DNA of 64,000 nucleotides from a virus (lineage: Duplodnaviria; Caudoviricetes), in IMG/VR virus record IMGVR_UViG_3300028591_000101, positions 90,403 through 154,402 of that record; one strand, given 5' to 3'. Under the pieces are notes generated by a model that was not told where the DNA came from, did not search any database, and worked only from the letters and a program-made list of their open reading frames with translations. A program made the translations under genes and the position numbers. Position 1 is the stretch's first letter. Each line of letters starts with the position of its first letter. Positions 1,613 to 62,044 of this stretch are shown here, piece by piece.

Positions 1613-4600
1613 AATAAGAACAACAGTTGGTCAAGAGGCTGATAGCTTTCTTGACGTACATCTTGACCAGGAATATGACAGTTTTGAAATTCTGTCACTT
1701 AAAATCAGCGATAAGGACACCTATAGGCTACATAACGCTGATTATGGCGTTATTGTTGGAAGAGTGCTGGCAAATGGAAACTTTGGCGTTCCGAATGCCA
1801 AGGTAAGTGTTTTTATTCCGGCAGACGAGACAAATAAAGACCTTGAATTGTGGAATCTATATCCATATACGTCAACATCAACCCAAAATGACAAGAATAT
1901 AAGGTATAATCTTTTACCGGACCAATCAGTAAAAGACTGCCACAAGGCCGTAGGAACATTCCCAAACAAGACATACTTGCTTGAAAATGACGGAATTCTT
2001 GAGATTTTTGACGAGTACTATATCTACACAACAAGGACGAATGATTCCGGAGACTACGTTATATGCGGTGTTCCAACTGGCATGCAGACTCTCCATATGG
2101 ACCTTGACCTATCAGATTGCGGCATTCTTTCACAGAGGCCGAGAGATTTCGTTTATAAGGGATATACAATTGAACAGTTTGATAATCCGAACCAATTCAA
2201 GAAGGACGAAAACATTGACAGCCTATCACAAATATTCAGTCAGAACCAGCCTGTTTATGTTTATCCATTCTGGGGAAATGAAGATAACGGTGACAATATA
2301 GGGATTACCAGGGCCGACATTCAAATTTCATTCAAGTTTGAGCCGACATGCGTGTTCATGGGCAGTGCTATTTCGGACAATCCGTCCAACGGTGTTAGCA
2401 AAAAATGTGTTCCCACAAATCAAATGGGGACCATGGATGAGCTTACCGCTGGCGAAGGTACCATTGAGATGATACGCAAAACACCAGGAGGAAACGTTGA
2501 AGAATTTGCAATCAAAGGAAACCAGCTTATTAATGGAAATGGTGTCTGGTGCTATCAGATACCAATGAACCTTGATTATATGATGACCGATGAATACGGA
2601 AATATGGTTCCTACTGATGACCCTGAAAAAGGTATTCCGACAAGGGCGAGGGTTCGTTTCCGTGCATCACTTACCGACATGGAAAATAGCATACAAAGCT
2701 ATTACAGGGCGAAGTATCTAATTCCGAACAATCCGGATATTGATAGTGAAAAGGTTGATTATAATTTTGGTACGTATACTGATGAAAGCTCTTATAGAGA
2801 CTTGTTCTGGAATGGTGTATATACAGTCAAGTCATACATACCTCGTTTCCAAAAGTCAAAGAGATGGAGAAATGAAAGATTTTCTGGTATAAAGGCGTGT
2901 AATTATTATGGCGGAAACAATCCGATGCCATACAATAATATGCGCATTAAGCTGCCGTTCATGTTCACTGTCCTCTGCATTTTTGTTAAACTATTTATAA
3001 AGCTTGTGACGCTTGTCAATAGAATTATCGCTGGTATAATAAAAGTTATAGCAGGCGTACTTGAGCTGTTTTTCCCAACAGTAAAGCTTATTGCGAGGGT
3101 CGTTAAATTTTTTAATTCAAAAGCCGGTGATTCTATATTAAATGCTGTTGATGGCATAGTTGCAAAATTTATTAATCCCGTCATAAGAAGATATGGGATT
3201 CACTGTACGTTCATTGGTGACGGACTTTGTCCGGATATGGAAGGGTGGTATTTCGCTCCAGGATGTACGCTAGGGAAAAACAGGTTTAAATCAACAACCA
3301 GAACTTTAATGGAAAATACACTGGCTGCAGCTGCTGGAACCGGAGAAAATCTTGAGGGCTTGGACGGAAGCCAAGACACACAGGACTCAATGAACTCTGG
3401 TGAATTTATTGATGAAACTTCCATTGATGTTCAGAATACGGCTTCAAGTGAGGAAGGGAGTGTATGCTTGACAAGAGATGTCAATTATCTGGTTAATTGC
3501 TTTGAAATGAATATTGCCCAAGAATATAGGGTTATTAAATTTGACTTCTATAATGACTGGGTAAATGGTGTTATATATTTTCCTAGATGGTTCAGAAAAA
3601 TAAAGAGAAAGAAAAAGTATAGAATTTCCCTAAAGAAAGGGGATAAACTCATCACTTCTTATTATAAGGATAAGGTATTTGGTTGCATGAACTCTGAGAC
3701 TTCTCGCGTAAAGAAGTCCAGGTATTATACACAACAATGTTCTTTGCAATATACGGCTGAGACAAGTAATAGCCCGTGGTCAAAGATTGTAACCGAACGG
3801 AATTGCTACAATACCCCTAAAACCAAGAAAAGAAACAGTGGAGTCAACATTATACCTGCGAAGTGTCACAAGAAGCAGGGTATGGACCAGTCAAGCATTT
3901 TTGGAAAAAAATCCGGTCTTGTTACCGAAGAAACAACAATGCTCGGCCAGTTTGTGTATTACTTGAAGCCTTGTGAGTGGAAAGATACCAATAATGGAAG
4001 GGTTCGTACGCTGCTCTTTGCCACAGACATTGTCTTACTTGGTACTTTGAATGATTGTGACGAAAATGGTATACCACAAGCATTCAAATATCTGAACAAT
4101 TCATCTTATATCATGCCGACGAATCTGGCGTTGACTACGATGGATGACGATGCTTATATATATGCTGCAGGCGATGGAACAATATGCGCCTCAAAAAATA
4201 AGCAGAGTCAGGGTGGTACGCCTCCGGAGCAAGAAGGTGTTAAGAGGATTACGCCAAATTATGAGTCAACATATAGCGCATATAGCAAGACTGATGGTGA
4301 TGCAATTACATATGAAGAAAATGATGACCCGATTCCAGTAACGGAAGCGGCGGGTATAAACTGGAACTATTCAGGCCCTGGTCAAGACGATGTGGACTTA
4401 GGTAAGTTGGAAGATTCACAAAGTTTCCTGGCTCGTTTGTTCGGGGCTGGTAATAGAAGGTTTGACTTCCTTTATTATCCAGGAGGCCATTTTCTTGGTT
4501 TATCATGCACAAACAGCGAATCAAATATAAAATCATGTGTTAACCTCAAAAGAATTTGTGAGGTTGGCGCATCTATGTCTCAGAGAAGGGAAGAGGTGCG

Positions 4601-7600
4601 CGGTTACACTATTGAGGGTGACATAAAATATCGTTATTATGTTCCGACTGGCCTTATAAGTAACGTTGATATAGAAGGGGCTTCATTTAGGTCAATGTTC
4701 GCCACGCTTAATCATCACACTCTGAATGCGACTGAACGAAATGATGTTACGGGATATAAGAAATATAATTTCAGGTTTTTGCGCCCGGATGGATTTGATG
4801 GTTCTTTGGGAAGCATTGTCCATCTTCCGAATTCGCCGTATAACAAAAAAGTAAATGATAGGGCTGAACATCATTACATAACCGATGCAACAAGTCTTTT
4901 TGAAAGATTGTTTATGGGCGCTTGGCAAAGACCAGATGATTATGACCCTAAGGAGATTGAATACACCGAAAGAAGAACTGTTGAAGACCAGATTGATGAC
5001 TATTTCATGTTTAGATTTGGCCTTGAAGGGTTTAGCAATAATGAACAGAGAAAGCACTTCTTATCAAAGAAGGGCCGTGGTTATATTTTCCCGCAGTACG
5101 AAAATTCCTTCTATTTTTACTTCGGTCTAAAGGATGGTTCAACTGCGCTTGATGAATTTAAGAAACAATTCTTTAGCGAGTGTCAGTCAAACAACGTCAT
5201 GAAGGAGCCTTTAATCAACATAAATGAAACAATAGATAGCAATCTTAACGGAAAGGCGCTACTGACGATTGATAATATGATTCCGCCATATGAGATAACT
5301 GTTATTGACAGCACGAGCGGTGATAAATTTGGCCCGAAAACATTTGAAATTGATACCATGCAGCTTGCTACAATAGTTGAGACTGGTTTATCAATTGGGC
5401 ATGAATATGTTGTTACGGTTACGGATAGTATTGATAATTCATTAACTAAAAAGTTTGTTTTCGGTGCAGATGCCGTACAAATTGATGTGCAAACCGTTAA
5501 TTTTAGGGTTCCAGCCACAGGTCCGACAAATACCCCGAATAAGGGTGGTTTCATTAAAATAAACCACAATCTTACTATTCTGAATAGCGGATATACTGTT
5601 GGAGATGGAGTTAGTTTTAAATTCAGAAAGGTTGAGAATGGTGTACCGGGACCGTACGAAACATATTCCGAAACAACGTACATTGATGCTGGTGGCGAAA
5701 TGTGGCATCTATATTATGTGCCGTCCGTTGGTACATTTGAAGTGCTAGCGTATTATCACGATAACTATGTCTCTGTTTACACCACGAAGATTGAGGATAA
5801 TAGAACGGTAAACCTTTATGTTGCTTGCGATTATCTTTCATATAAGCCAGAATACAAGGGTGGTTCAGTCTATGCCCCCGCGTTTAATGGCGGTCTGAAG
5901 AACATATCAAATGCTGATTGGTATAATGGGGCCCCATTCCGTGGTTCTGGCTGGGAAAATTGGCTAATGCGTCATACATATTATCGCCAAACAGAAAATG
6001 ATGCCCTGTCCTATGACAATTATATTTACACGAAGGGTAAGTGTGATGTTGCCATCTTTGGCCAGCCGGAAAAGGGAGGTAGTGTTCCTGGGGCTAGTTT
6101 GAATGGAACAGGCGTTGATGCGCAAGGAAATACACCAAATAGTTATTCCAATGATTATGATGACTTCCCGGGCTATGTTGTAGACGATACATATACCTAT
6201 ATACCCACAATGTACTTTAATCCATCAAATAAACTGGAACAAACTGGGGTGTTTAGGAATGCGTTTGACGCTATGTCTTATACCGAAGATGGGCGTGCGG
6301 CTGCAGATGCTCTTGACGCGAACATAACGTCATATAATTTTTCAGATGGAACCGTAACACTTGGTTTTTCTGGTGGAAATGGAAAATTGACGAATGGACA
6401 TGGTTGTATTGTTGTATTTGAGGACGGTACGATTATGTTCCCGGTTGTTCGGGGAGGAAATTTGGTTGCAAAGTATCCAACAGATATATACCCAGAAGGT
6501 CCTGCAACACAATTGCTTTCAATGGCAACAATTTATCCGACGTTGAGGATTCCTTCTGTATATAAGCCATTCTATGGGGAAATTTCCGCCGCTACATGGA
6601 GTCTTGTTGCTCTGTCGGTGTCGCCAAATGAAAATAATGAAACTGTTGCCTTAAGAAATAATTTACCGGCATCATATAAGGTTGAGGGTAATATTTTCAA
6701 TGGTCTTACGTGGAATAATCATTTTTATTCTGGGGATACAGCTGGTGAATATGATACATATTTCATGTACAAGAACGACAGAAGATTTTATGATGCACTG
6801 ACAACAAACTCAAGCCTTGATTACGAATGTAAGAGGAAAATTACCCCTGATGGTAAGTTTGGTCAGGGTTCATGGATTGCTACCGGTTTTGCCTATGGGC
6901 GTGAAATAAGCGCATTTACTGATAGCGTTGTGGATATAAATCAAATCTCTTATGCTGTAAGGGAAGGAATACCACCGGAAGAAGCGATTAAGGCCTCTTA
7001 TCCAAATGTATTTACTGAGAGGTATTTGGGTGGTTTTGACCATACATTACTGAAGGATAGTTGCTCTTTTGAAACGGCATTCTACGAAGACCTCGTCATA
7101 AAGCTTTTTGACACTAACAGTGAAATGTCTGGACAATGGACCGTATATTCAGATGAAGGGGCTTTGGGCGCAGAAACCAAATATTATATTTCGTCCGCTG
7201 AGATATTTGACAGGTCTCAGTCGCCAATGGTCGTTGATGAAGCGTATGACAACGACAATAGCAACAGACAAAAATATTGTCACGGATATTATAATAAGAA
7301 TGCAAAAAACGATAAAAAGGGCGAAATTGTTTCCGTAACATATAGAAATCCGCTAATCGGAAGCACCAGGTATGAATATTATATAACTAATGACAGTGGT
7401 GCTAGAGTCAAAGAAGAGGTGAGGCCAGCATCTGAGAGTGAATTATATAATGTTGGAATTACGTTACTGCACGGATATACCATAAAGCCAGTATTCGCTT
7501 TAAACTTGGATACTCTTTCATCCATTGTCAATGGAGGTCAAGAATTTGAGGTTTCAACAAAGGGAAAAATTAAGAATGTTTTCAGCGGAGAAAACCTCAA

Positions 7601-8092: not shown

Positions 8093-10294
8093 GTGAAAAA
8101 AATGCAAAGGAAACTTTTACAAGAAAAAAGTTTAAATAGAATGCGCGGTAATGCGGAGAAGTCAATGAATGTTGACCTCTCCGCAAAATCACGTCTTATA
8201 CCCTTTTCAGATACTGCAGATATGTTGAGCCTTAATGACTTGTATATTGAAGAAAGGGATGCTTGTGAAAATTATCGCATGATTCTGTCGGTTAATCCTA
8301 TATGCAGCAACATATTATATAATGCAGTAACTGAACCGGTATATAAGGAAGGAAGTTATTCCGCAATCAATCTTGCCATAGAGACGGTGAGGAAAGATAA
8401 TACTGATATATTTCCAGAAGGCACCATGAACCAGAGCGGTGACACTGATGGAAATAAAATAGTTGACCAAATAGGTGCTGTACGTGATACAGAGTATTCG
8501 CACGAAAGAATCGGAAATTTCAAATATCATTGTGGGTACGATTTTTTCAACAACCATCTTTTAAGGACGAGTGAGTTTGAGCACGTAAAAATGGAAGAGA
8601 GTGTGACTCCGAAAAATGCAGTTGAATTCAATACCATTTTTGATTTTGCAATTGACCATAGTGGAAAAACGGTCACCAGGGTTATAGGGGAAAGCGAAGG
8701 CCCAGTGAGAGGAAGTGACTTGGTACGCGAAAACATAAGAATGTATCAATTGGACAACATGAGGTCAATTAATACAGCATTTTATGATGAATTTAGAGAG
8801 CTTAATGGCTGGTACGGGTTTTATAATACAGGATACATAAACATTCCGAACGGGAAATTAAACGGAGAAGAAATTTCATTAAACCGAATATTGAACAATG
8901 AAGTTCCGTGTGGCTTTGTTGATTTATATCCGGACAGGTCGTTATATAGCTTCATCCCAAAAGTAAATCGTTTCAAAAAGAGATTGGAAAGGAATTGGGA
9001 TTGTACTGTTGTGTATCCATATAAGAGTGATTACGAAACGTTTGGAAAAATTAACAAAAACCTTGCGAATGCTGTAAGAGTCATAAATGCAAAAATTGTT
9101 TATAATAACGTTGGTGACGAACTTATCCAGATGCATACCCTTTTAAGGCATACACTTAATCCGGGCGACGAAATAAGACTCTTTTATCGTGACAGCCAAG
9201 GAGAGGCACTTTTTGATAATATGGAATGGGAAGAATACCTTGCTACGAATGGGGTTGAAGTTCGCAGATATACAGTTCCAGTAAAGGTTATTAGTGTTGG
9301 CGACCAGAAAGGAAACGACAAAAAGCATTATTTCACCATAAAAATGTCCGATGTTAATATCATATGTGGTGTGATTGAGTCCGAAGGCAAAACTAAACTA
9401 CCGGGGATTAAGGATTCAACGGGTAATGTATCCGGCCCGATTTATTTTTTCTATAAGAAGATTGAAAACGGCGTTGATGATAGGTACTATTTCAGAAAGT
9501 TCAAGCAGTTATTAAACTATGAATATGTTATGATTCTTCCGGATGAGGTACCAAGCGAAGAATACGCCGAACTTGTCGGGAGGGCCACCAAAGTAATACA
9601 TGAACCAACGACAATCAATGAAAACAGCCCGAAAATAATACGGCTTGCTAATGACATATTTGTTCGCGTATCAAGGCCTCTGACATATACCCAGAATAAG
9701 ATTGCATTTGGAGAGAATATCTACGGAGATAGGGTTGCCCAGGTCATCTTTAATGATGACATATGTGTAAGTGGCCTTAAAGACAACCTTGGGAGGCCAT
9801 TAACAAGTGTTTATTTTGCATCCGTCAAGACAAACAGAGGTCATAAAGAATGGTACGAAGAGAATAATTTTACGGCGGATACTGTTGAATATTCTCACTG
9901 TTTCGGAGATGTAACGTCTGGCCTTGACTTACCGTCAGATGAAGAGTCAACGGAATACAACGTGAGGAAACTTTATAATGTATTTATTGAAAATCCGGAC
10001 TTTGACAGGGATTATGCTGAAGGACTTTCACTAGCTTTATATGACGCTCCGACTGGAAATTACAGCGGAACCCCGACCCCGCTTGAAAGTGCTATAACAG
10101 TTGATGATTTTGATGAATTTTTCGGTGATATAGTTGAATTTAGCAAAATTGATTTCATTGAGACGCCCATTGAAAAAGTCTATCACAGATTCAATACGGC
10201 CCAAAGAGAGTGTTTGTCTAACAACAAATACTTTGACATAAATTATGATAATCTGGTCGGAGACCTGTTTGATGTAGATGAAGTAAATGAATAA
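8093..10294 (+). CDS. Virion structural protein (baseplate region), start codon uncertain
   Basis: 733 aa ORF tightly packed in operon. Confidence 0.6.
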   Translation: MKKMQRKLLQEKSLNRMRGNAEKSMNVDLSAKSRLIPFSDTADMLSLNDLYIEERDACENYRMILSVNPICSNILYNAVTEPVYKEGSYSAINLAIETVRKDNTDIFPEGTMNQSGDTDGNKIVDQIGAVRDTEYSHERIGNFKYHCGYDFFNNHLLRTSEFEHVKMEESVTPKNAVEFNTIFDFAIDHSGKTVTRVIGESEGPVRGSDLVRENIRMYQLDNMRSINTAFYDEFRELNGWYGFYNTGYINIPNGKLNGEEISLNRILNNEVPCGFVDLYPDRSLYSFIPKVNRFKKRLERNWDCTVVYPYKSDYETFGKINKNLANAVRVINAKIVYNNVGDELIQMHTLLRHTLNPGDEIRLFYRDSQGEALFDNMEWEEYLATNGVEVRRYTVPVKVISVGDQKGNDKKHYFTIKMSDVNIICGVIESEGKTKLPGIKDSTGNVSGPIYFFYKKIENGVDDRYYFRKFKQLLNYEYVMILPDEVPSEEYAELVGRATKVIHEPTTINENSPKIIRLANDIFVRVSRPLTYTQNKIAFGENIYGDRVAQVIFNDDICVSGLKDNLGRPLTSVYFASVKTNRGHKEWYEENNFTADTVEYSHCFGDVTSGLDLPSDEESTEYNVRKLYNVFIENPDFDRDYAEGLSLALYDAPTGNYSGTPTPLESAITVDDFDEFFGDIVEFSKIDFIETPIEKVYHRFNTAQRECLSNNKYFDINYDNLVGDLFDVDEVNE

Positions 10295-30621: not shown

Positions 30622-31075
30622 AAATTATTTCGTCATATTCATCCGGTGTTGGTGCCTGAAACCTCTGTACGAGTCTGTCCCATGCATCGTCAGGTATTTG
30701 TCCGTTCCGCCTTTGTTTATTGACTTCAACGCTCGGTGCCTCAACAACAACATAAATCCATTTCACATCATATGGGGACAGGATTTTCTTGTAGTCATTC
30801 CTATATTGCCTCCGTATGTTTATGTTGTTGATTGCAATATCATAACCTTCACGGGCAAACATCTTCAGTTTCGTATGGAATATGCTGCTGACCATAAACT
30901 CCTGCTCATTGGTGCCTATAATCTTGTCGCCGGGGTTGCAATAGCCAAGTTCAGCCCTTATATCATCACGACAAACGACCTTGACATCTGGCGGAAGGTT
31001 GTTTTTAATCCAAGTGTCTTTCCCAGCCCCAGGAAGACCTATCATCACATAAACGTTAATCTGTCTCTTTTCCAT
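30608..31075 (-). CDS. P-loop kinase (AAA_33 / polynucleotide-kinase-like)
   Basis: MIGLPGAGKDT Walker A, CRDDIRAEL. Confidence 0.8.
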   Translation of the reverse strand: MEKRQINVYVMIGLPGAGKDTWIKNNLPPDVKVVCRDDIRAELGYCNPGDKIIGTNEQEFMVSSIFHTKLKMFAREGYDIAINNINIRRQYRNDYKKILSPYDVKWIYVVVEAPSVEVNKQRRNGQIPDDAWDRLVQRFQAPTPDEYDEIIYDKQ

Positions 31076-32528
31076 ATTTCCAGTTCAAATAGTTTTCAAG
31101 TTCCTTTGACGAGAAGGTGTAATAACCTCCAGATTTATATTTTCCAAGCATCTTTACATAGTTCATAAAGTCTTGTGTTTCAAGGGCTTTCAGACCTTCC
31201 TGGTGCTCTGTGAGTATATAGAGACCACCGTATACACCAGTGCCAGCAGGAGCCTCAACGGGTTTAACATCATCAAGTGTCTTAATGAGGCTCTTGATTG
31301 CCCATTTCTCTTTCCACGTGTCGTTTATCGCCTGTGTCCTACCGAAAGCATACCAAGGCTCGGTTGTTGCCCGCCCTTCAAGTTTTTCCTTGTGCTCGGT
31401 CAACGTATTCAATATCACCTCGTCAATTTCATTTTCATTCATCAGCTTGCCGGTTTTAGAATACGGGTAATAGCACCATTCCTGTTTTCCCGTTGATGAC
31501 TTGATTACCGGTATGATGTTCCATGGCCGCACAGAATGATAAACTCTATGGGTTTCCCGTTTATCTTTTGGAATAAACACGTCGTCAGCCAGTGTAGCAA
31601 AACCGTTCTTTACTTGGAAAACCTTATCCTGTCGCTTTGTACCCTTTCCGTATTCAATGATTTCCCGCATCTGCATAAGCTGACCAGGCGTTCCGAAATA
31701 GAACTTCCCGTCAATGTTCATATCGTTAAACGGGACATAAGTCACACCTTGCCAAAATCCGTCATCATCGGCAGTTCTTTCCATAGTGACATGTTTGACA
31801 GCATCCACTTTTTCTTTTCCGAAAATTGTGATTGCCACGTAGGTAGTCGCGTTTTCAAAAAGCTGGTAGTGTCCGTAATCCTCAATATATTCAAGGTTCC
31901 GGTTTTCAATGACATAATCTCTCATCTTTTGACCCGCCAATGAGGTTAACCATGAGGAAGGTGTAATATAGCACATCTTACCGGTCTCGTTCATCATTCG
32001 GAAACCAAGCTCATAGAAAGCGAGGTATATGTCCTTCATTCCCTCCGTAGTAAAAGTATAACCAGACAGGTCACATTCAAGGTCGTGAGTTCTGATATAA
32101 GGCGGATTTGCGATGACAAAATCCATCTTTCCGTCATAATCGTGACAGGAAAGAGCGTCACGGTTTTGTATGTCCCACTTTACGTCTTTAATTCCATCTA
32201 GAGCTGCAACCCGGTCAAGTCTCTCAATACATCTCTGGTATTCAACGGGGTCAAGTTCAATCCCATGGATATAGGTTTCCAGGAGTTTCTTAATCTCCTG
32301 TTTGTTTCTTCTGGTTGTTACACTTACGTTGTGGATATAAAAATCTACGATAAGTGCCAGGAACGCCCCATCGCCGCAAGAGTTGTCTATTATATGTTTC
32401 CTTGCATTCGGCCAATAGACGCGACCATTTTCATACACCAAGTTATCCCACCCGAGTATATCGTGCAACATTCTGTCTGCGGTGTCTTTCGGCGTGAATA
32501 TCTTACCGTCTTTTTTCTTCTTTCCCAT
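31056..32528 (-). CDS. N6-adenine DNA methyltransferase (Eco57I/TaqI-like), apparently orphan
   Basis: IFTP, DNSCGDGAFL motif I, ANPPY motif IV, YITPSSW, FENATTY. Confidence 0.85.
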   Translation of the reverse strand: MGKKKKDGKIFTPKDTADRMLHDILGWDNLVYENGRVYWPNARKHIIDNSCGDGAFLALIVDFYIHNVSVTTRRNKQEIKKLLETYIHGIELDPVEYQRCIERLDRVAALDGIKDVKWDIQNRDALSCHDYDGKMDFVIANPPYIRTHDLECDLSGYTFTTEGMKDIYLAFYELGFRMMNETGKMCYITPSSWLTSLAGQKMRDYVIENRNLEYIEDYGHYQLFENATTYVAITIFGKEKVDAVKHVTMERTADDDGFWQGVTYVPFNDMNIDGKFYFGTPGQLMQMREIIEYGKGTKRQDKVFQVKNGFATLADDVFIPKDKRETHRVYHSVRPWNIIPVIKSSTGKQEWCYYPYSKTGKLMNENEIDEVILNTLTEHKEKLEGRATTEPWYAFGRTQAINDTWKEKWAIKSLIKTLDDVKPVEAPAGTGVYGGLYILTEHQEGLKALETQDFMNYVKMLGKYKSGGYYTFSSKELENYLNWKYGKETD

Positions 32529-33478: not shown

Positions 33479-33949
33479 ATGCCGCATAAAGTAGAGATAA
33501 GCGATAAGACATATGAAGATTTGAAGGAATTCTGTAATTTGAATAACCTTAAAATCGGACAATTTGCGGATAAGTTGATTCGTGACGGACTTATGATAGA
33601 AATGTATGGGGATGTACCGTTTACAAACTACAAGAGACCGGCGCAAGACCAAGTAGAGGCGGTAAAAACAGTCATGGTGAAGTTAAAAGAGCAAGAAAAC
33701 CCAGAAGCGGAAGCCGAAATTATGGACTCTGGTGATATCATGTTTGGAAACCAGGATGATGTTGCTGAGGCGATTGATAAGGAGACAAAAGACCGCATGA
33801 TTGAGGCAATGGAAAAGGTTGAAGCAGAGCATCCACAGACCTATATAACAAACCAAGAGGGAGAAAAAGAAATTCAGAAAGAAATGCTCAAACAACTTGG
33901 TGTACCAGACAAAGTAGTTAACAAAATAACCAGAAGAAGACTTAAATAA
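33479..33949 (+). CDS. Hypothetical protein (ribbon-helix-helix-like N-terminus)
   Basis: KVEISDKTYEDLKEFC start; coupled to next gene. Confidence 0.6.
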   Translation: MPHKVEISDKTYEDLKEFCNLNNLKIGQFADKLIRDGLMIEMYGDVPFTNYKRPAQDQVEAVKTVMVKLKEQENPEAEAEIMDSGDIMFGNQDDVAEAIDKETKDRMIEAMEKVEAEHPQTYITNQEGEKEIQKEMLKQLGVPDKVVNKITRRRLK

Positions 33950-36330
33950 TGGCGAAAGCAAAGAAAGAACCGGAGAACACGAACAGTTATTGGTATGAGA
34001 TGCCAGTCCTGCCAACCCAGACAATCACAAAGGAGCAGGAGAAGAGCATCATAGCCAAGATTGCCAAGAAACATAATGTTCCTCCGGCAAAGGTAAGATT
34101 TAGCACAAAGAAAATTTACCCTGACGGCGTTTCGGGTCAGGATACGGCCCTTAATGCCGAAATGATTAACAACATCAAGGACCCGAAATTCCAGCAGCAG
34201 CTTTTCAAGGAGTATATTGAGAAGAACGGTGTCAAGGATTACAATTGGGATGAAATACTTAACATTGATTCCCGTGTCAATGCTCTGATTAACTATGATG
34301 CATACGAAAAGAGCCGCCGTTTCGTCCTGAGATATGCGAAGTGGAAGAACTTCCTGTCTTATGGTGAGAACAATTTCTTTGACTTCACGAAGCTCAGCGG
34401 TCTCGTCCACCTTAAAGGCGACCCGGCAAACAAGAGTGGTAAATCAACTTTTGCTTACGACCTTATTCACTTTGCGCTGTTTGGTAAGACCCGTTCCGGA
34501 AAAGCCGACAAGCAGAGCGAAATGTTCAACAACTACCTTCCGAACGAGAGAGAATTGTTCGTGGAGGTAGGTATTACCATTGACGGTGAGAACTATGTCA
34601 TTAGAAGAACCCTCACCAAGCCGGACCCGAAGAAGAAGACCAAGACCATCAGTAACAATGTGGCCTACTATCGTGTCAATGGCGACGGACAGGAGGAAGA
34701 ACTGAACGAGTCCGACAATATGCAGGATGTTTCCACTACGAAGACCACCAAGGCAATCAAGGAGGCCATCGGCAGCGAGGAAGACTTTGACCGCATCATT
34801 TCGGCTAACGCAAAGGACCTTGACGAACTTATCTCAATGAAGGATACTGACAGGGGACGTATCCTTTCAAGATGGATTGGTTTGCTTCCACTTGAAGAAA
34901 AGGAGCAGAAAGCCAAGGATATGTGGGCTAAATCATGTGTTGGCCGTCTTTGTGATATGTACGACCGGGAAACACTTAGGTCGGACATTGAAGCCATCAA
35001 GGAAGAGAACATCGCCAGCGCACAGACAATTGAGGCTAACAGGGAGAAAATCCAGGAAACAAAGAAACTCCTGGAAAGTGACAGCAAAAACAAGGACATC
35101 CTCCTATCATCCAAGCAAAAAGTTGATGATGAACTACTTAATGTAGATGTGACCACTATTGAAACAAGAATGAATAAGGTCATAGAGGATGGAAAGAAAA
35201 ACAACGAGACCCTTGCGACCCTTGAAAATGAAGTGGCTGAAATCGGTGAAGTTGAGTATTCTGACAGTCAGTACAAGTCCTTGTCATCCAAGAAAGACGC
35301 TCTTACCAATGAAATTGCTGCGTTAAAGGCCGAAATGGGAAATAAGAAGAAGGAAGCCCAAGCTCTTGCAAATGACGAGTATTGCCCTACATGTCACCAG
35401 AAATGGCCGGATAGGGATAACTCCAAGGCAATTGCAAAGCTCCAGGAAGAGTTCGCTGAGGATTACCAGAAGGGTCTCCAATTAAAGGCCCAGAAGGACG
35501 AGATTGAAGCCGCAATGAATGCTCTTGAAGATGCCCGTGAGAAGTATCTTGCAAAGGCCCAGAAGGAAATCAAAATCGGGGCGTTGAAGAACAAGAGAAC
35601 CACCCTTCTTACTGAATACAACAAGCTCAAGAAGATTGCCAATGACTATAAGGACAATAAGGACATCATTCTGAGGAACAACCAGATTGATGCCCAGGTC
35701 AATGTCCTAAAAGTCAATATTGAGTCCTATAATACCACCATCCATCGTCTTGAAAGTGAAAATGTTGCATCTCAGAAAGATATTGACACGAATAATGAAA
35801 CTATCAGGCAGAAAGAATCGTATATTAAACGCATTGAACAAGAAATTGAGCTTGAAAGGACTTGGAGGCTGTATCTGCAGATGGTCGGTAAGGATGGAAT
35901 CTCAAAGATGGTTCTCCGCAATACAATCCCTACCATCAACTTGCATCTTGACGAACTTCTCTATGATGTGGCCGATTTCAAGGTAGAGGTGGAAGTCAAC
36001 GAGAAGAACGACATTGAGTTCTGGCTTGTCCGAGACGGTGTTAGAACCAGGCTTGCAGGTGGTTCCGGACTTGAAAGAACCGAGGCCGCACTTGCCTTAC
36101 GAGTTGTTCTGGCTAACATGTCCAACCTGTCAAGACCTCCATTCATTGTGCTTGACGAAATCCTTGGTAGTGTTGCGTCAGAGAACTACGAAGACATGAA
36201 GAGACTTTATGACAAGATTGTCCTTGAATATGACTTCGTCCTCCATATCTGTCACATTGACCTTGATTGGTATGACAAGACAATTCTGGTGACGAAAAAA
36301 TCGAATATTTCAACCATATCAGTGGATTAA
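33949..36330 (+). CDS. SbcC/Rad50/T4 gp46-like recombination ATPase
   Basis: KNFLSYG, NKSGKST Walker A, CPTC zinc hook, GSGLE signature, IVLDE Walker B. Confidence 0.9.
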   Translation: MAKAKKEPENTNSYWYEMPVLPTQTITKEQEKSIIAKIAKKHNVPPAKVRFSTKKIYPDGVSGQDTALNAEMINNIKDPKFQQQLFKEYIEKNGVKDYNWDEILNIDSRVNALINYDAYEKSRRFVLRYAKWKNFLSYGENNFFDFTKLSGLVHLKGDPANKSGKSTFAYDLIHFALFGKTRSGKADKQSEMFNNYLPNERELFVEVGITIDGENYVIRRTLTKPDPKKKTKTISNNVAYYRVNGDGQEEELNESDNMQDVSTTKTTKAIKEAIGSEEDFDRIISANAKDLDELISMKDTDRGRILSRWIGLLPLEEKEQKAKDMWAKSCVGRLCDMYDRETLRSDIEAIKEENIASAQTIEANREKIQETKKLLESDSKNKDILLSSKQKVDDELLNVDVTTIETRMNKVIEDGKKNNETLATLENEVAEIGEVEYSDSQYKSLSSKKDALTNEIAALKAEMGNKKKEAQALANDEYCPTCHQKWPDRDNSKAIAKLQEEFAEDYQKGLQLKAQKDEIEAAMNALEDAREKYLAKAQKEIKIGALKNKRTTLLTEYNKLKKIANDYKDNKDIILRNNQIDAQVNVLKVNIESYNTTIHRLESENVASQKDIDTNNETIRQKESYIKRIEQEIELERTWRLYLQMVGKDGISKMVLRNTIPTINLHLDELLYDVADFKVEVEVNEKNDIEFWLVRDGVRTRLAGGSGLERTEAALALRVVLANMSNLSRPPFIVLDEILGSVASENYEDMKRLYDKIVLEYDFVLHICHIDLDWYDKTILVTKKSNISTISVD

Positions 36331-57424: not shown

Positions 57425-57673
57425 ATGAGTAGTTTTTGGATATGGGCGGTGCTCTTTGTCAGTTATACACTTTTAGGTATTTGCATATTTTCGCTAACCC
57501 TTAATGAAGATGGCAAACCGGGCATTTTACCCTTCGTTGGAAAATGGAAGAGACCTTTCAGGGTAATGTTTAATTTGTCCTTCGTGTATTTTTGGCCGGT
57601 ATATCTGGCGGTTGGTTTTGCAATCGGTGCAGGAAGCGCCCTGTGGGAAGCGGTACGTGGGATTTTTGCGTAG
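57425..57673 (+). CDS. Two-TM membrane protein
   Basis: Shares DG.KP...K[FW]KRP[YF]RV..LSF..FW with 57123-57374. Confidence 0.65.
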   Translation: MSSFWIWAVLFVSYTLLGICIFSLTLNEDGKPGILPFVGKWKRPFRVMFNLSFVYFWPVYLAVGFAIGAGSALWEAVRGIFA

Positions 57674-57675
57674 TT

Positions 57676-57691
57676 TGGCACGGTTTTTGTA
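57676..57691 (+). promoter_or_regulatory. sigma54-type -24/-12 box in front of RNA array
   Basis: TGGCACG-gttt-TTGTA, 16 nt before first tRNA. Confidence 0.65.
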
Positions 57692-57707
57692 GTTAATGTG
57701 TAATAAT

Positions 57708-57778
57708 GCCTGGGTCGTCTAGTGGAAGGACGTATCTCCCCTAAAGATAAGACGGCGATTCGACTTCGCCCCCGGGTA
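57708..57778 (+). tRNA. tRNA-Arg(CCU), C33
   Basis: Cloverleaf; TATCT-cccctaa-AGATA. Confidence 0.7.
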
Positions 57779-57799
57779 CAGAGTTCTTTGAAAAACAAA

Positions 57800-57992
57800 C
57801 AATCTATCAACTGTTGGCTTGGAAGCAGCCATCAGCTAAAGAGTGGCATTGCCCCCGTTTCGCGAGTGAAGAGGGGATTGCAAGTAAACGTAAATCGTGA
57901 CATCTAGTCCGAGTCAATTACCTCAGGCGCGTGCGTAGGAACTACCTCGGTGAGAAGTGATGGCCTTTGGCGTAACAGCACATGATAGATTG
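57800..57992 (+). ncRNA. 23S rRNA H43-H44 (L11-binding/GTPase centre) mimic RNA
   Basis: TGTTGGCTTGGAAGCAGCCATCAGCTAAAGAGT...GCGTAACAGCACA closed by 10-bp CAATCTATCA/TGATAGATTG stem. Confidence 0.75.
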
Positions 57993-57998
57993 CAATAT

Positions 57999-58138
57999 AA
58001 TGATGTCGAGTCGTCTAATGAAGAAGGGAGTGTATACGGTTAATGCATGACCGCTGAGAAGCAACCGAGATTGGAACATGACAGATACCATCCGGGGACA
58101 AATACAAGAGTGCGCATTACTGTCCGGAAGACATCATT
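57999..58138 (+). ncRNA. Structured ncRNA candidate
   Basis: AATGATGTC/GACATCATT closing stem, internal hairpins. Confidence 0.45.
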
Positions 58139-58148
58139 TTTGAAATAT

Positions 58149-58225
58149 GTGGTTGTCGTATAGTGGGTAAGTACATCTGCTTGACGTGCAGAAAGCCGTT
58201 GGTTCGAATCCATCCAGCCACACCA
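58149..58225 (+). tRNA. tRNA-Val(GAC)
   Basis: TCTGC-ttGACgt-GCAGA; encoded CCA. Confidence 0.85.
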
Positions 58226-58230
58226 ACACA

Positions 58231-58327
58231 AATGATAACTGCATGTACATAATCAATGCCACAAGGTTGGGCTCTTGAGAATATGGCAGATAAAGGTACT
58301 TGGACAATCCCAACTACGGTTATCATT
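58231..58327 (+). ncRNA. Pseudoknotted ncRNA candidate
   Basis: 11-bp closing stem; TGCCA/TGGCA; GTTGGG/CCCAAC. Confidence 0.45.
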
Positions 58328-58331
58328 ATAT

Positions 58332-58407
58332 GCCCCAGTGGTGTAACGGAATTAACATAGGTCCCTTCTAAGGATGCAGATTGGGGGTTCGAATCCCTCC
58401 TGGGGTA
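58332..58407 (+). tRNA. tRNA-Arg(UCU)
   Basis: Loop ctTCTaa; cloverleaf. Confidence 0.85.
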
Positions 58408-58428
58408 CAAAATTTAAGAGTTTAGTTT

Positions 58429-58617
58429 ATGTTGTGGTTTATTGAAAACAGAAAGAAAGAATTTGATGATGAAAAGGTTCCGATGCCGATTGGCTATACG
58501 GTCATCATTGCGATAGTGGCGATTGCCCTGTTGTTTTTCGGAACATATAAGGCGGTCAATTGGGCCGAGAAGCTTGATATGAAAGCCCATGGCCAAACGG
58601 AGCTCATTGAAGAATAA
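58429..58617 (+). CDS. Small membrane protein inside RNA array
   Basis: 62 aa with one TM. Confidence 0.55.
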   Translation: MLWFIENRKKEFDDEKVPMPIGYTVIIAIVAIALLFFGTYKAVNWAEKLDMKAHGQTELIEE

Positions 58618-58645
58618 TGCCCTCGTAGTATTAAAGGCTGAGTAC

Positions 58646-58717
58646 GCACCCATAGTATAGTTGGGAAAATAATGCCTTGGTATGGCATAGTCACCAGTTC
58701 GATTCTGGTTGGGTGCT
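58646..58717 (+). tRNA. tRNA-Thr(GGU)
   Basis: ATGCC-ttGGTat-GGCAT. Confidence 0.8.
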
Positions 58718-61209: not shown

Positions 61210-61384
61210 GACCTTGTAGCTCAGTTGGTAGAGCACGACACTTTATAAGGGGTGGTTCACCGTAACGAACCAAACCGTTAGAATTCGAGCAGTGGAAAAC
61301 ACTTGGGAAACAGGTGAGGCACGGGTGCAAGTCCCGTTAACGGTTCTAATGTCGGGGTCGCGGGTTCGAGCCCCGCCGGGGTCA
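61210..61384 (+). tRNA. tRNA-Lys(UUU)-like gene interrupted in the anticodon by ~102-nt insert
   Basis: Canonical 5' half to CGACA-CTTT and 3' half TAA-TGTCG...GGTTCGAGCCC...GGTCA. Confidence 0.7.
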
Positions 61385-61547: not shown

Positions 61548-61624
61548 GCTGGGTTAATCTGCTAGTTGGTCGAGGCGGGGTGCCTTTCAAGCATCCGACT
61601 CCGGTTCGAATCCGGAACCCAGTA
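61548..61624 (+). tRNA. tRNA-Glu(UUC), atypical D-arm
   Basis: GGTGC-ctTTCaa-GCATC. Confidence 0.7.
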
Positions 61625-61641
61625 CAAGTTCATTGAAATAT

Positions 61642-61956: not shown

Positions 61957-62037
61957 CGGGAAGTACGCTAATTGGCCTTTTTGTAAGCGGCCTGGTCAGG
62001 AGCCAGGGAGATGCAGGTTCGAATCCTGTCTTCCCGA
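61957..62037 (+). tRNA. tRNA-Pro(AGG), C33/A34, enlarged D-loop
   Basis: CCTGG-tcAGGag-CCAGG; C1:G72, A73. Confidence 0.7.
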
Positions 62038-62044
62038 CAAATAT

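Follow-up and report, generated by a model that had tools for sequence, protein, structure and literature searches.

Putative phage RNAs resembling the GTPase-associated center of 23S rRNA form a family found mostly in tRNA arrays

Why should a phage carry, among its tRNA genes, what reads as a free-standing copy of part of 23S rRNA? The question is raised by positions 57800-57992 of the 64,000-nt stretch of viral DNA analyzed here (hereafter the window), a 193-nt putative non-coding RNA in which a closing stem frames a helix 43 (H43) copy and a helix 44 (H44) whose 5' strand is split from its hairpin by an insert (Table 1). [quoted passage not shown] The E. coli reference given for comparison is likewise the real rrlB sequence 1051-1108. 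Nucleotides of the rRNA-like parts are given below in E. coli numbering.

Table 1. Parts of the GAC-like element and its flanking tRNA genes, in window coordinates.
Feature	Position	Strand	Remarks
tRNA-Arg(CCU), upstream neighbor	57708..57779	+	ARAGORN; Rfam tRNA 50.9 bits; followed by a 20-nt spacer
Closing stem, 5' strand	57800..57809	+	in place of the top of H42; perfect 10-bp pairing with 57983-57992
Equivalent of A1056	57810	+	E. coli numbering mapped
H43 copy (E. coli 1057-1081)	57811..57835	+	E. coli numbering mapped
1067 loop of the H43 copy	57820-57826	+	G at position 1067 (57821)
Turn 1082-1086 (C-UAA-A), linking H43 and H44	57836..57840	+	minority C.A form at 1082:1086
G1087 A1088 G1089 U1090, lower 5' strand of H44	57841..57844	+	E. 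coli numbering mapped
Inserted domain	57845..57965	+	stem GGCAU/AU(G)GCC, 57845-49 with 57960-65; internal hairpins (insert folded alone); length and sequence particular to this phage
UUUG linker from insert to H44 hairpin	57966..57969	+	signature of the family, not in rRNA
Upper H44 hairpin (1091-1100), 1095 loop GUAACA	57970..57979	+	E. coli numbering mapped
A1101 C1102 A1103, lower 3' strand of H44 and junction	57980..57982	+	E. coli numbering mapped
Closing stem, 3' strand	57983..57992	+	pairs with 57800-57809
tRNA-Val(GAC), next tRNA downstream	58149..58225	+	ARAGORN; Rfam

The same architecture was found in at least 119 viral contigs, in about 35 contigs of bacterial genome assemblies and in about 25 cultured phages. 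Scanning viral contigs for the 18-nt H43 core gave at least 119 loci, with almost no rRNA genes among the matches listed, from which 87 non-redundant elements were delimited. From 5' to 3', members begin with the closing stem, continue with GG-A-NN-GUN-GGCUUAGAAGCAGCCAUC-NN-YUAARGAGU and an insert closed by a stem of its own, and end with (Y)UUUG, GCGUAAYAGC-ACA-CC and the other strand of the closing stem. The window shows this pattern, with YUAARGAGU after the H43 copy and GCGUAAYAGC followed by ACA (57811-57844 and 57970-57982), and its insert between 1090 and 1091 has the GGC/GCC closing stem and the UUUG linker of the family architecture. A second ascertainment relied on the family-specific 3' motif alone, searched in one genome per species across 185,579 prokaryote species. 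It returned 106 matches, of which about 70 correspond to the chance level for a 17-mer and about 33-44 are true members; the H43 loop lies 0-2 mismatches from the consensus in 30 of 33 of these.

Inserts are typically 30-350 nt long, and their whole range runs from 0 to more than 350 nt. Some insert classes have conserved modules of their own, such as CACCCCG-GNRA-CGGUAAGG. Among the matches listed, two loci are insert-less (L014, at about 3715-3790, and L088, with its core near 9597 on the minus strand); at about 70 nt they are minimal members, their H44 forming one unbroken hairpin, and they point to the GAC core as the common functional part. A tandem pair of GAC-like cores, about 320 nt apart, was seen within one tRNA array (L053, 5129-5708). 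The cultured carriers include the Pseudomonas and Aeromonas phages pf16, Milchi, Astolliot, UNO-G1W1 and 4_4572 (the last an Aeromonas phage), Cronobacter phage GAP32, Pectobacterium phage CBB, Serratia phage BF, Acinetobacter phage ME3, the Erwinia pEa_SNUABM phages and Kaldavass, the Yersinia phages fHe-Yen9-03 and fHe-Yen9-04, and the Xanthomonas phages XbC2, XaC1 and XacN1. A GAC-like RNA is annotated in none of these cultured carriers' records.

The case for an rRNA-like fold rests on comparative evidence, since the thermodynamic folding of the window element is only mildly better than that of shuffled sequences (z -2.39) and its nearest-neighbor minimum-energy fold does not give the rRNA-like fold. 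An alignment of 41 of the 87 elements was made with MAFFT, and RNAalifold, run on it unguided, recovered the closing stem, H43 and the H44 hairpin. Pairs were then counted for the explicit rRNA-like structure plus the insert stem, with 500 shuffles for comparison. Across the 41 members, 92.7% of cells in these columns are paired (72.2% in shuffles), both sides of a pair have changed in 200 cells (58.5 in shuffles), and the covariation score of 0.467 (0.124 in shuffles) was attained by none of the 500 shuffles; registers slid out of place give 33-52% paired. The closing stem is free in sequence and always paired, with changes on both sides at seven of the seven counted pairs, and all four pairs of the insert stem covary (GC/AU/UA/CG). 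Covariation extends to the rRNA-like core in the same 41 members: 1057:1081 is AU in 32 and CG in 6, 1058:1080 is UA in 16, GC in 14 and AU in 7, 1082:1086 is UA in 17, CG in 13 and AU in 4, and 1090:1101 is UA in 35, CG in 2 and UG in 2. G1087:C1102 is a G-C pair in all 41. The initial annotation had suggested looking in jumbo-phage tRNA arrays for conserved H43 and H44 loops with a variable insert and a covarying closing stem, and such elements were found.

A covariance model, R1, matches the window copy over its full length (1-174) with 103.5 bits and an E-value of 6.6e-31, a score that is high partly by construction because the window copy is among the 41 sequences from which R1 was built. 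Searching the window with R1 found 57800-57992 as the sole copy.

Positions 1062-1079 were fixed by the search pattern of the H43 core scan. Outside that pattern, G1059, U1060, U1083-A1085, G1087, A1088, G1091-U1094, A1098, G1099 and C1102 are invariant in the 41 members; A1095 is an A in 40 and A1101 an A in 37, and the four columns of the UUUG linker read U in 36, U in 39, U in 39 and G in 35. Other core positions are looser: 1067 is A in 34 and G in 7, 1096 is A in 33 and G in 8, and 1097 is U in 21, C in 13, A in 6 and G in 1, so that either purine is accepted at 1067 and 1096, and at 1097 any base. The invariant positions are those that, we presume, build the GAC tertiary fold. We take its contacts to be U1060-A1088, 1082:1086, G1071 and C1072 with 1091:1100 and 1092:1099, and the A-minor interactions of A1084 and A1085. 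At the level of sequence, all of the tertiary-contact nucleotides on this list are present in the window, except for C.A at 1082:1086 and A-U at 1055:1104. The A-minor triple G1055=C1104/A1085 of the GAC has been described (PMC1919483), and a GG/CC at the place of G1055=C1104 is kept in 34-35 of the 41 members. The window copy departs from the family consensus at these two pairs, with A-U for G=C at 1055:1104 and C.A at 1082:1086, and in a third place by its G at 1067.

Could the element nevertheless be a scrap of rRNA, or belong to a family that already has a name? It had been proposed to be a selected, stand-alone module, and this is borne out by hundreds of homologues, by covarying stems and by features absent from rRNA. 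Compared with the five 23S rRNAs examined, the family has A1101 (U in the rRNAs), the UUUG linker and, instead of H42, a stem that pairs with itself. The window and 13 other loci were compared with Rfam 15 at gathering thresholds, and the interval 57600-58700 at E<=10. The only matches were tRNAs, two tmRNAs and two group I introns, none of them over the elements, in keeping with the expectation that no named family would be found. A partial large-subunit rRNA match that had been foreseen did not appear: LSU_rRNA_bacteria has no match even at E<=10 in 57600-58700, and the flanks consist of tRNA and spacers. The reading as an rRNA intervening sequence or intron was rejected, as no rRNA gene surrounds the element and neither group I nor group II introns are matched over it. 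The inserts show no recurrent similarity to E. coli 16S, 23S or 5S rRNA, except for a sarcin-ricin-like hairpin in a long-insert subclass, to which we return below.

Paenibacillus phage Pd_22F was rejected as a member, since its match lies in a real 2.6-kb 23S gene that looks quite different. This stretch (L121, MZ092003.1, about 82.5-85.5 kb, at the end of the record) is an unannotated 23S-like sequence of about 2.6 kb with 74% identity to E. coli, and represents either host DNA or an assembly join.

We also asked whether the element follows the rRNA of its host. UUGGAAG and GUAACAGC (G1067 and C1097) had been taken for the Bacteroidota form of the rRNA, and this is correct, as seen in Bacteroides and Olivibacter 23S. 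Host tracking of G1067 and C1097 nonetheless found no support; the selected module, the lack of a named family and the jumbo-phage tRNA array of the initial interpretation did find support. The element cannot be said to follow its host, since A1067 is found in three of four Bacteroidota-binned contigs and Bacteroidota-type promoters are not enriched in the window (5 against 3.05 expected); pf16 and GAP32, for their part, keep the family form. The 23S sequences compared were those of the Clostridia carriers' own genomes and, for pf16 and GAP32, those of E. coli and a Pseudomonas genome. The two phages keep GAGU...UUUG...ACA where the gammaproteobacterial 23S of E. coli and of the Pseudomonas genome, taken here in place of that of the phages' own hosts, reads GAAAGCGUAAUAGCUCAC. 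Within the Flintibacter muris and Clostridiaceae genomes, several positions distinguish the element from the GAC of the host itself. Chimerism with host rRNA, or its repeated capture, was rejected on the persistence of the family features in phages of Pseudomonas, Cronobacter and Clostridia, unlike the compared 23S.

The genomic context is that of a jumbo-phage tRNA array, as had been supposed, and the near-complete relatives measure 364 kb. The window element sits inside an array of 24 tRNAs, between tRNA-Arg(CCU) and tRNA-Val(GAC), and no terminator-like site was found on the plus strand in the interval between these two genes. Across the family, a tRNA lies within 300 nt of 57 of the 87 elements, on the same strand in all 57 and in many cases at 0-10 nt; about 30 of the 87 do not adjoin a tRNA. 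The pf16 element (KU873925.1, 29420-29600) sits between tRNA-Asn and tRNA-Pro, and that of GAP32 (JN882285.1, 289514-289759) between two small same-strand ORFs. No protein is conserved as a neighbor, the best family being present at 5 of the 87 loci, and no uL11 (Ribosomal_L11) gene was found in the 154-kb record to which the window belongs. From these two observations, the partner of the RNA is probably a host component. At the level of sequence comparison, fold-level mimicry of the GAC, the existence of the family, its covariation and its tRNA-array context can be regarded as established.

Several other features of these arrays were observed. A tmRNA directly adjoins the GAC-like RNA in two unrelated arrays (L085, 8163-8535; L106, 11048-11373), and group I introns occur in the tRNA arrays of L075 (2941-3164) and L106 (1354-1608). 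In a Flintibacter muris prophage (L196), the element is located between a tail-fiber gene and a gene for a fused polynucleotide kinase-phosphatase/RNA ligase of 730 aa (2522-4714, phrog_8238, E 3.4e-225), about 1.2 kb downstream of the element; the pairing with this RNA-repair enzyme is confined to three related loci of one lineage (L196, L009 and L125). In the window, a second stem-closed stretch (ATGATGTC/GACATCAT, 58000-58138) directly follows the GAC-like RNA and precedes tRNA-Val. Rfam does not match it, it folds with a z-score of only -1.23, and homologues were found neither among 247 loci nor in the metagenome scan or the syntenic gap of a relative, L246. Further along, Rfam reports a tRNA over 175 nt at 61210-61384 (49.1 bits) that ARAGORN does not call, which may be a tRNA gene broken by an insert of about 100 nt. 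In tRNA-Glu(UUC) at 61561-61625 and tRNA-Thr(UGU) at 61957-62038, the anticodon falls at position 26 according to ARAGORN, a sign that their 5' halves may be unusual or truncated.

The phage itself is a very large uncultured one, its 154-kb record being judged 42% complete. No PHROG family could be assigned to seven of the nine large ORFs (623-1121 aa) within 1-56000 of the window. The only products recognized are an SbcC-like protein at 33949-36330 and, at 31056-32528, a DNA methyltransferase; described phages are all very distant from this one. Elements of the same core type are present in 364-kb contigs (one of them 94% complete and with a single copy) and in five metagenome contigs. In these closest relatives of the window element the insert is about 355 nt long and does not align with the 125 nt of the window, and no relatives of the window's own insert were found among the 247 loci or from the metagenome scan. 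In L246 (217 kb, 61% complete), a neighboring protein is 75% identical and the tRNA array is syntenic with that of the window. The Arg(CCU)-Val(GAC) gap there contains only 127 unrelated bases, and no copy of the GAC-like RNA was found anywhere in this 217-kb record, itself 61% complete. The absence from a syntenic relative indicates that the element is dispensable or mobile and, together with the unalignable inserts, that the element and its insert have been gained, lost and exchanged among related phages. The syntenic array of L246 also has a tRNA with a four-base anticodon (tacg; 2840-2916), to which ARAGORN assigns no amino acid.

One insert module stands out. Eight distinct long-insert members, in a subclass that contains the closest relatives of the window element, have in common a hairpin of the form N-AGUAC-NNNN-GGA(A/G) with a covarying flanking stem. 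On the alignment of these inserts (A5), the stem is 88.9% paired (56.8% in shuffles) and has a covariation score of 0.837 (0.214 in shuffles), attained by none of 500 shuffles. The AGUAC-NNNN-GGA hairpins resemble the sarcin-ricin loop (H95) of 23S rRNA, the L244 hairpin UAGUACGAGAGGAGC matching the E. coli loop UAGUACGAGAGGACC at 14 of 15 positions. They differ from it in their tetraloop, which is variable and not kept as GAGA (GGGA, GAAA, CAGC or AGAA). The window insert has no clean hairpin of this kind, only AGUA-A[ACG UAAAU CGU]-GAC without the flanking stem. The bulged-G module is a common RNA building block, and with the tetraloop variable this second mimicry is suggestive, not proven.

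What might such an RNA do? uL11 recognizes exactly the GAC fold in an isolated 58-60-nt rRNA fragment. Even when its terminal pairs are altered, an isolated 60-nt GAC RNA folds and is bound by the C-terminal domain of uL11, a protein that acts in EF-G GTP hydrolysis and in RF1-dependent termination (PMC1802607). Because isolated GAC RNA binds uL11 and the family keeps what this recognition needs, we tentatively favor a decoy, a reading that we consider plausible while stopping short of calling it probable: a stable RNA, cut from a tRNA transcript, would bind host uL11 and imitate the factor-binding site off the ribosome. The RNA, of about 193 nt, would be transcribed with the phage tRNA array and freed by tRNA-end processing. 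Its termini would fold into the GAC, comprising the top of H42, H43 and H44, with the variable domain branching from H44 between 1090 and 1091. Once bound to host uL11, the particle would withdraw uL11, or the ligands of the uL11-GAC complex, from host ribosomes, and a plausible effect would be the blunting of uL11-dependent responses such as RelA activation. Four points weigh against this reading: the departures of the window copy from the consensus at 1055:1104, 1082:1086 and 1067; the relative L246, which lacks the element; the location of most uL11 on ribosomes, owing to which a sponge may capture little in a short infection; and the conserved insert modules, the sarcin-ricin-like hairpin among them, for which uL11 binding alone does not account.

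On the ribosome, the GTPase-binding site is made up jointly of the GAC and the sarcin-ricin loop, and it is conceivable, though on balance unlikely, that the RNA is a miniature factor-binding center that engages EF-G, EF-Tu, IF2, RF3 or RelA directly, with or without uL11, and sequesters or stimulates them off the ribosome. The covarying sarcin-ricin-like hairpin, present in the closest relatives of the window element, speaks for such a center, yet the window insert does not have it in clean form, its tetraloop is not kept as GAGA in the members that do have it, and its bulged-G motif is of a common type; moreover, variation at the factor-contacting positions (1067, 1096 and 1097) exceeds that elsewhere in the core. 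A combined form of these ideas can be drawn up, as all members carry the GAC and the long-insert subclass adds the sarcin-ricin-like hairpin, which amounts to a portable factor-binding site. With host uL11, this site might constitute an extraribosomal particle that binds or activates GTPases or RelA, or absorbs ribotoxic enzymes. We regard this extension as rather doubtful; if true, it would represent a new class of host-takeover or counter-defense ribonucleoprotein.

Less likely again is a bait for host enzymes that attack the factor-binding site, such as the nucleases, ADP-ribosyltransferases or methyltransferases of abortive-infection and toxin systems, by which the 23S rRNA would be spared. 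Extra phage tRNAs are thought to offset tRNA-targeting defenses, and by analogy the position of the element in tRNA arrays, and directly beside a tmRNA in L085 and L106, would suit a bait, as would the RNA-repair gene near the element in one Clostridia prophage lineage. The site reproduced by the sarcin-ricin-like hairpin is a classical target of ribotoxins, and some toxins, such as Tre23 and VapC20, act on H44 or the sarcin-ricin loop. However, we know of no GAC-directed defense system in the carrier hosts, the RNA-repair neighbor is found only in the three related loci, and no partner gene is conserved.

The wide range of insert lengths, from none to several hundred nucleotides and differing even between related phages, together with the conserved modules of some insert classes, would fit an arrangement in which the GAC fold serves as a compact, nuclease-resistant scaffold and the insert as the working part; alternatively, the RNA could aid the processing or stability of the tRNA array. 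We hold both to be improbable. A mere scaffold would not need the rRNA-exact loops and tertiary nucleotides that are kept across phages of many hosts, insert-less members exist, and about a third of the elements have no adjoining tRNA. Far less probable is a role in cis, with the RNA as a leader that would respond to free uL11 by regulating the gene that follows, in the manner of ribosomal-protein operon leaders. That mRNA leaders can mimic rRNA is an established principle and the GAP32 copy lies between same-strand ORFs, but in the window and most loci there are tRNAs on both sides rather than a coding gene, no downstream gene is conserved, and the 154-kb record is without a Ribosomal_L11 gene. 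Finally, an artifact (a fragment of host rRNA, a chimeric assembly, or a piece of rRNA with an intron or intervening sequence), for which the 91% identity of the window H43 to real 23S rRNA over 34 nt might be invoked, can be dismissed on the comparative data: the flanks do not consist of rRNA, the stems covary, the features that distinguish the element from rRNA are common to more than 100 independent contigs and to complete cultured phage genomes, and the true 23S gene of the Pd_22F record looks quite different.

The uL11 decoy that we favor, like its alternatives, is directly testable, given a large family, cultured phages of tractable hosts and the well-developed biochemistry of uL11, thiostrepton, EF-G and RelA. 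The elements are also natural variants of the GAC fold with RNA-only extensions, useful for structural work. A literature search that included the family's own sequence motifs, and whose coverage left most subscription journals outside, found no description of these RNAs. In a 2023 survey of candidate structured viral RNAs, no rRNA predictions overlapped the candidates, and 23S, L11 and GTPase go unmentioned.

Among known systems, the closest is the 23S GAC itself (E. coli 1051-1108, the 58-60-nt fragment that binds uL11 and thiostrepton). The phage RNAs are like it in secondary structure, in the invariant nucleotides that we take to be tertiary and in both loops, and the family pairs 1057:1081, 1058:1080 and 1082:1086 covary as base pairs. 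With laboratory GAC constructs they have in common a free terminal stem and, often, an A at 1061. They are unlike the 23S GAC in standing outside rRNA with a closing stem of their own, in the domain of 0 to more than 350 nt and the UUUG placed between 1090 and 1091, in A1101 and the looser 1067, 1096 and 1097, and in being encoded by phages, mostly in tRNA arrays.

Ribosomal-protein operon leaders (L1, L10, S8 and S15) are also RNAs that copy, off the ribosome, a protein-binding site of rRNA. These leaders are cis-acting 5' UTRs of bacterial operons and reproduce only a local binding motif, whereas the phage RNA is stand-alone, flanked by tRNAs and copies a whole tertiary domain; the Rfam searches turned up no uL11-binding leader of such a form. 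The stable RNAs rnaC and rnaD of T4 (its species 1 and 2 RNAs) and the ornate RNAs GOLLD and ROOL are similar in being structured non-tRNA RNAs located beside phage tRNA genes, but have no relation in sequence or structure to the GAC-like RNA. For rnaC and rnaD, a relation was rejected after an unfiltered search of the T4 tRNA region by R1 gave a best score of 3.6 bits (E 0.47), and the GOLLD and ROOL models of Rfam gave no match.

The proposed logic recalls that of decoy and sponge RNAs, in which a structured RNA, present in abundance, poses as the ligand that a cellular protein naturally binds: 6S RNA for RNA polymerase, CsrB and RsmZ for CsrA, and adenovirus VA RNA for PKR. Unlike these, the putative decoy described here would imitate a functional center of the ribosome. 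We know of no earlier case of a virus-encoded, free-standing copy of such a center. If confirmed, the GAC-like RNAs would be the first, could reveal a new route of translational takeover or counter-defense, and would take their place alongside the tRNAs, tmRNAs and ribosomal proteins that phages are already known to encode.
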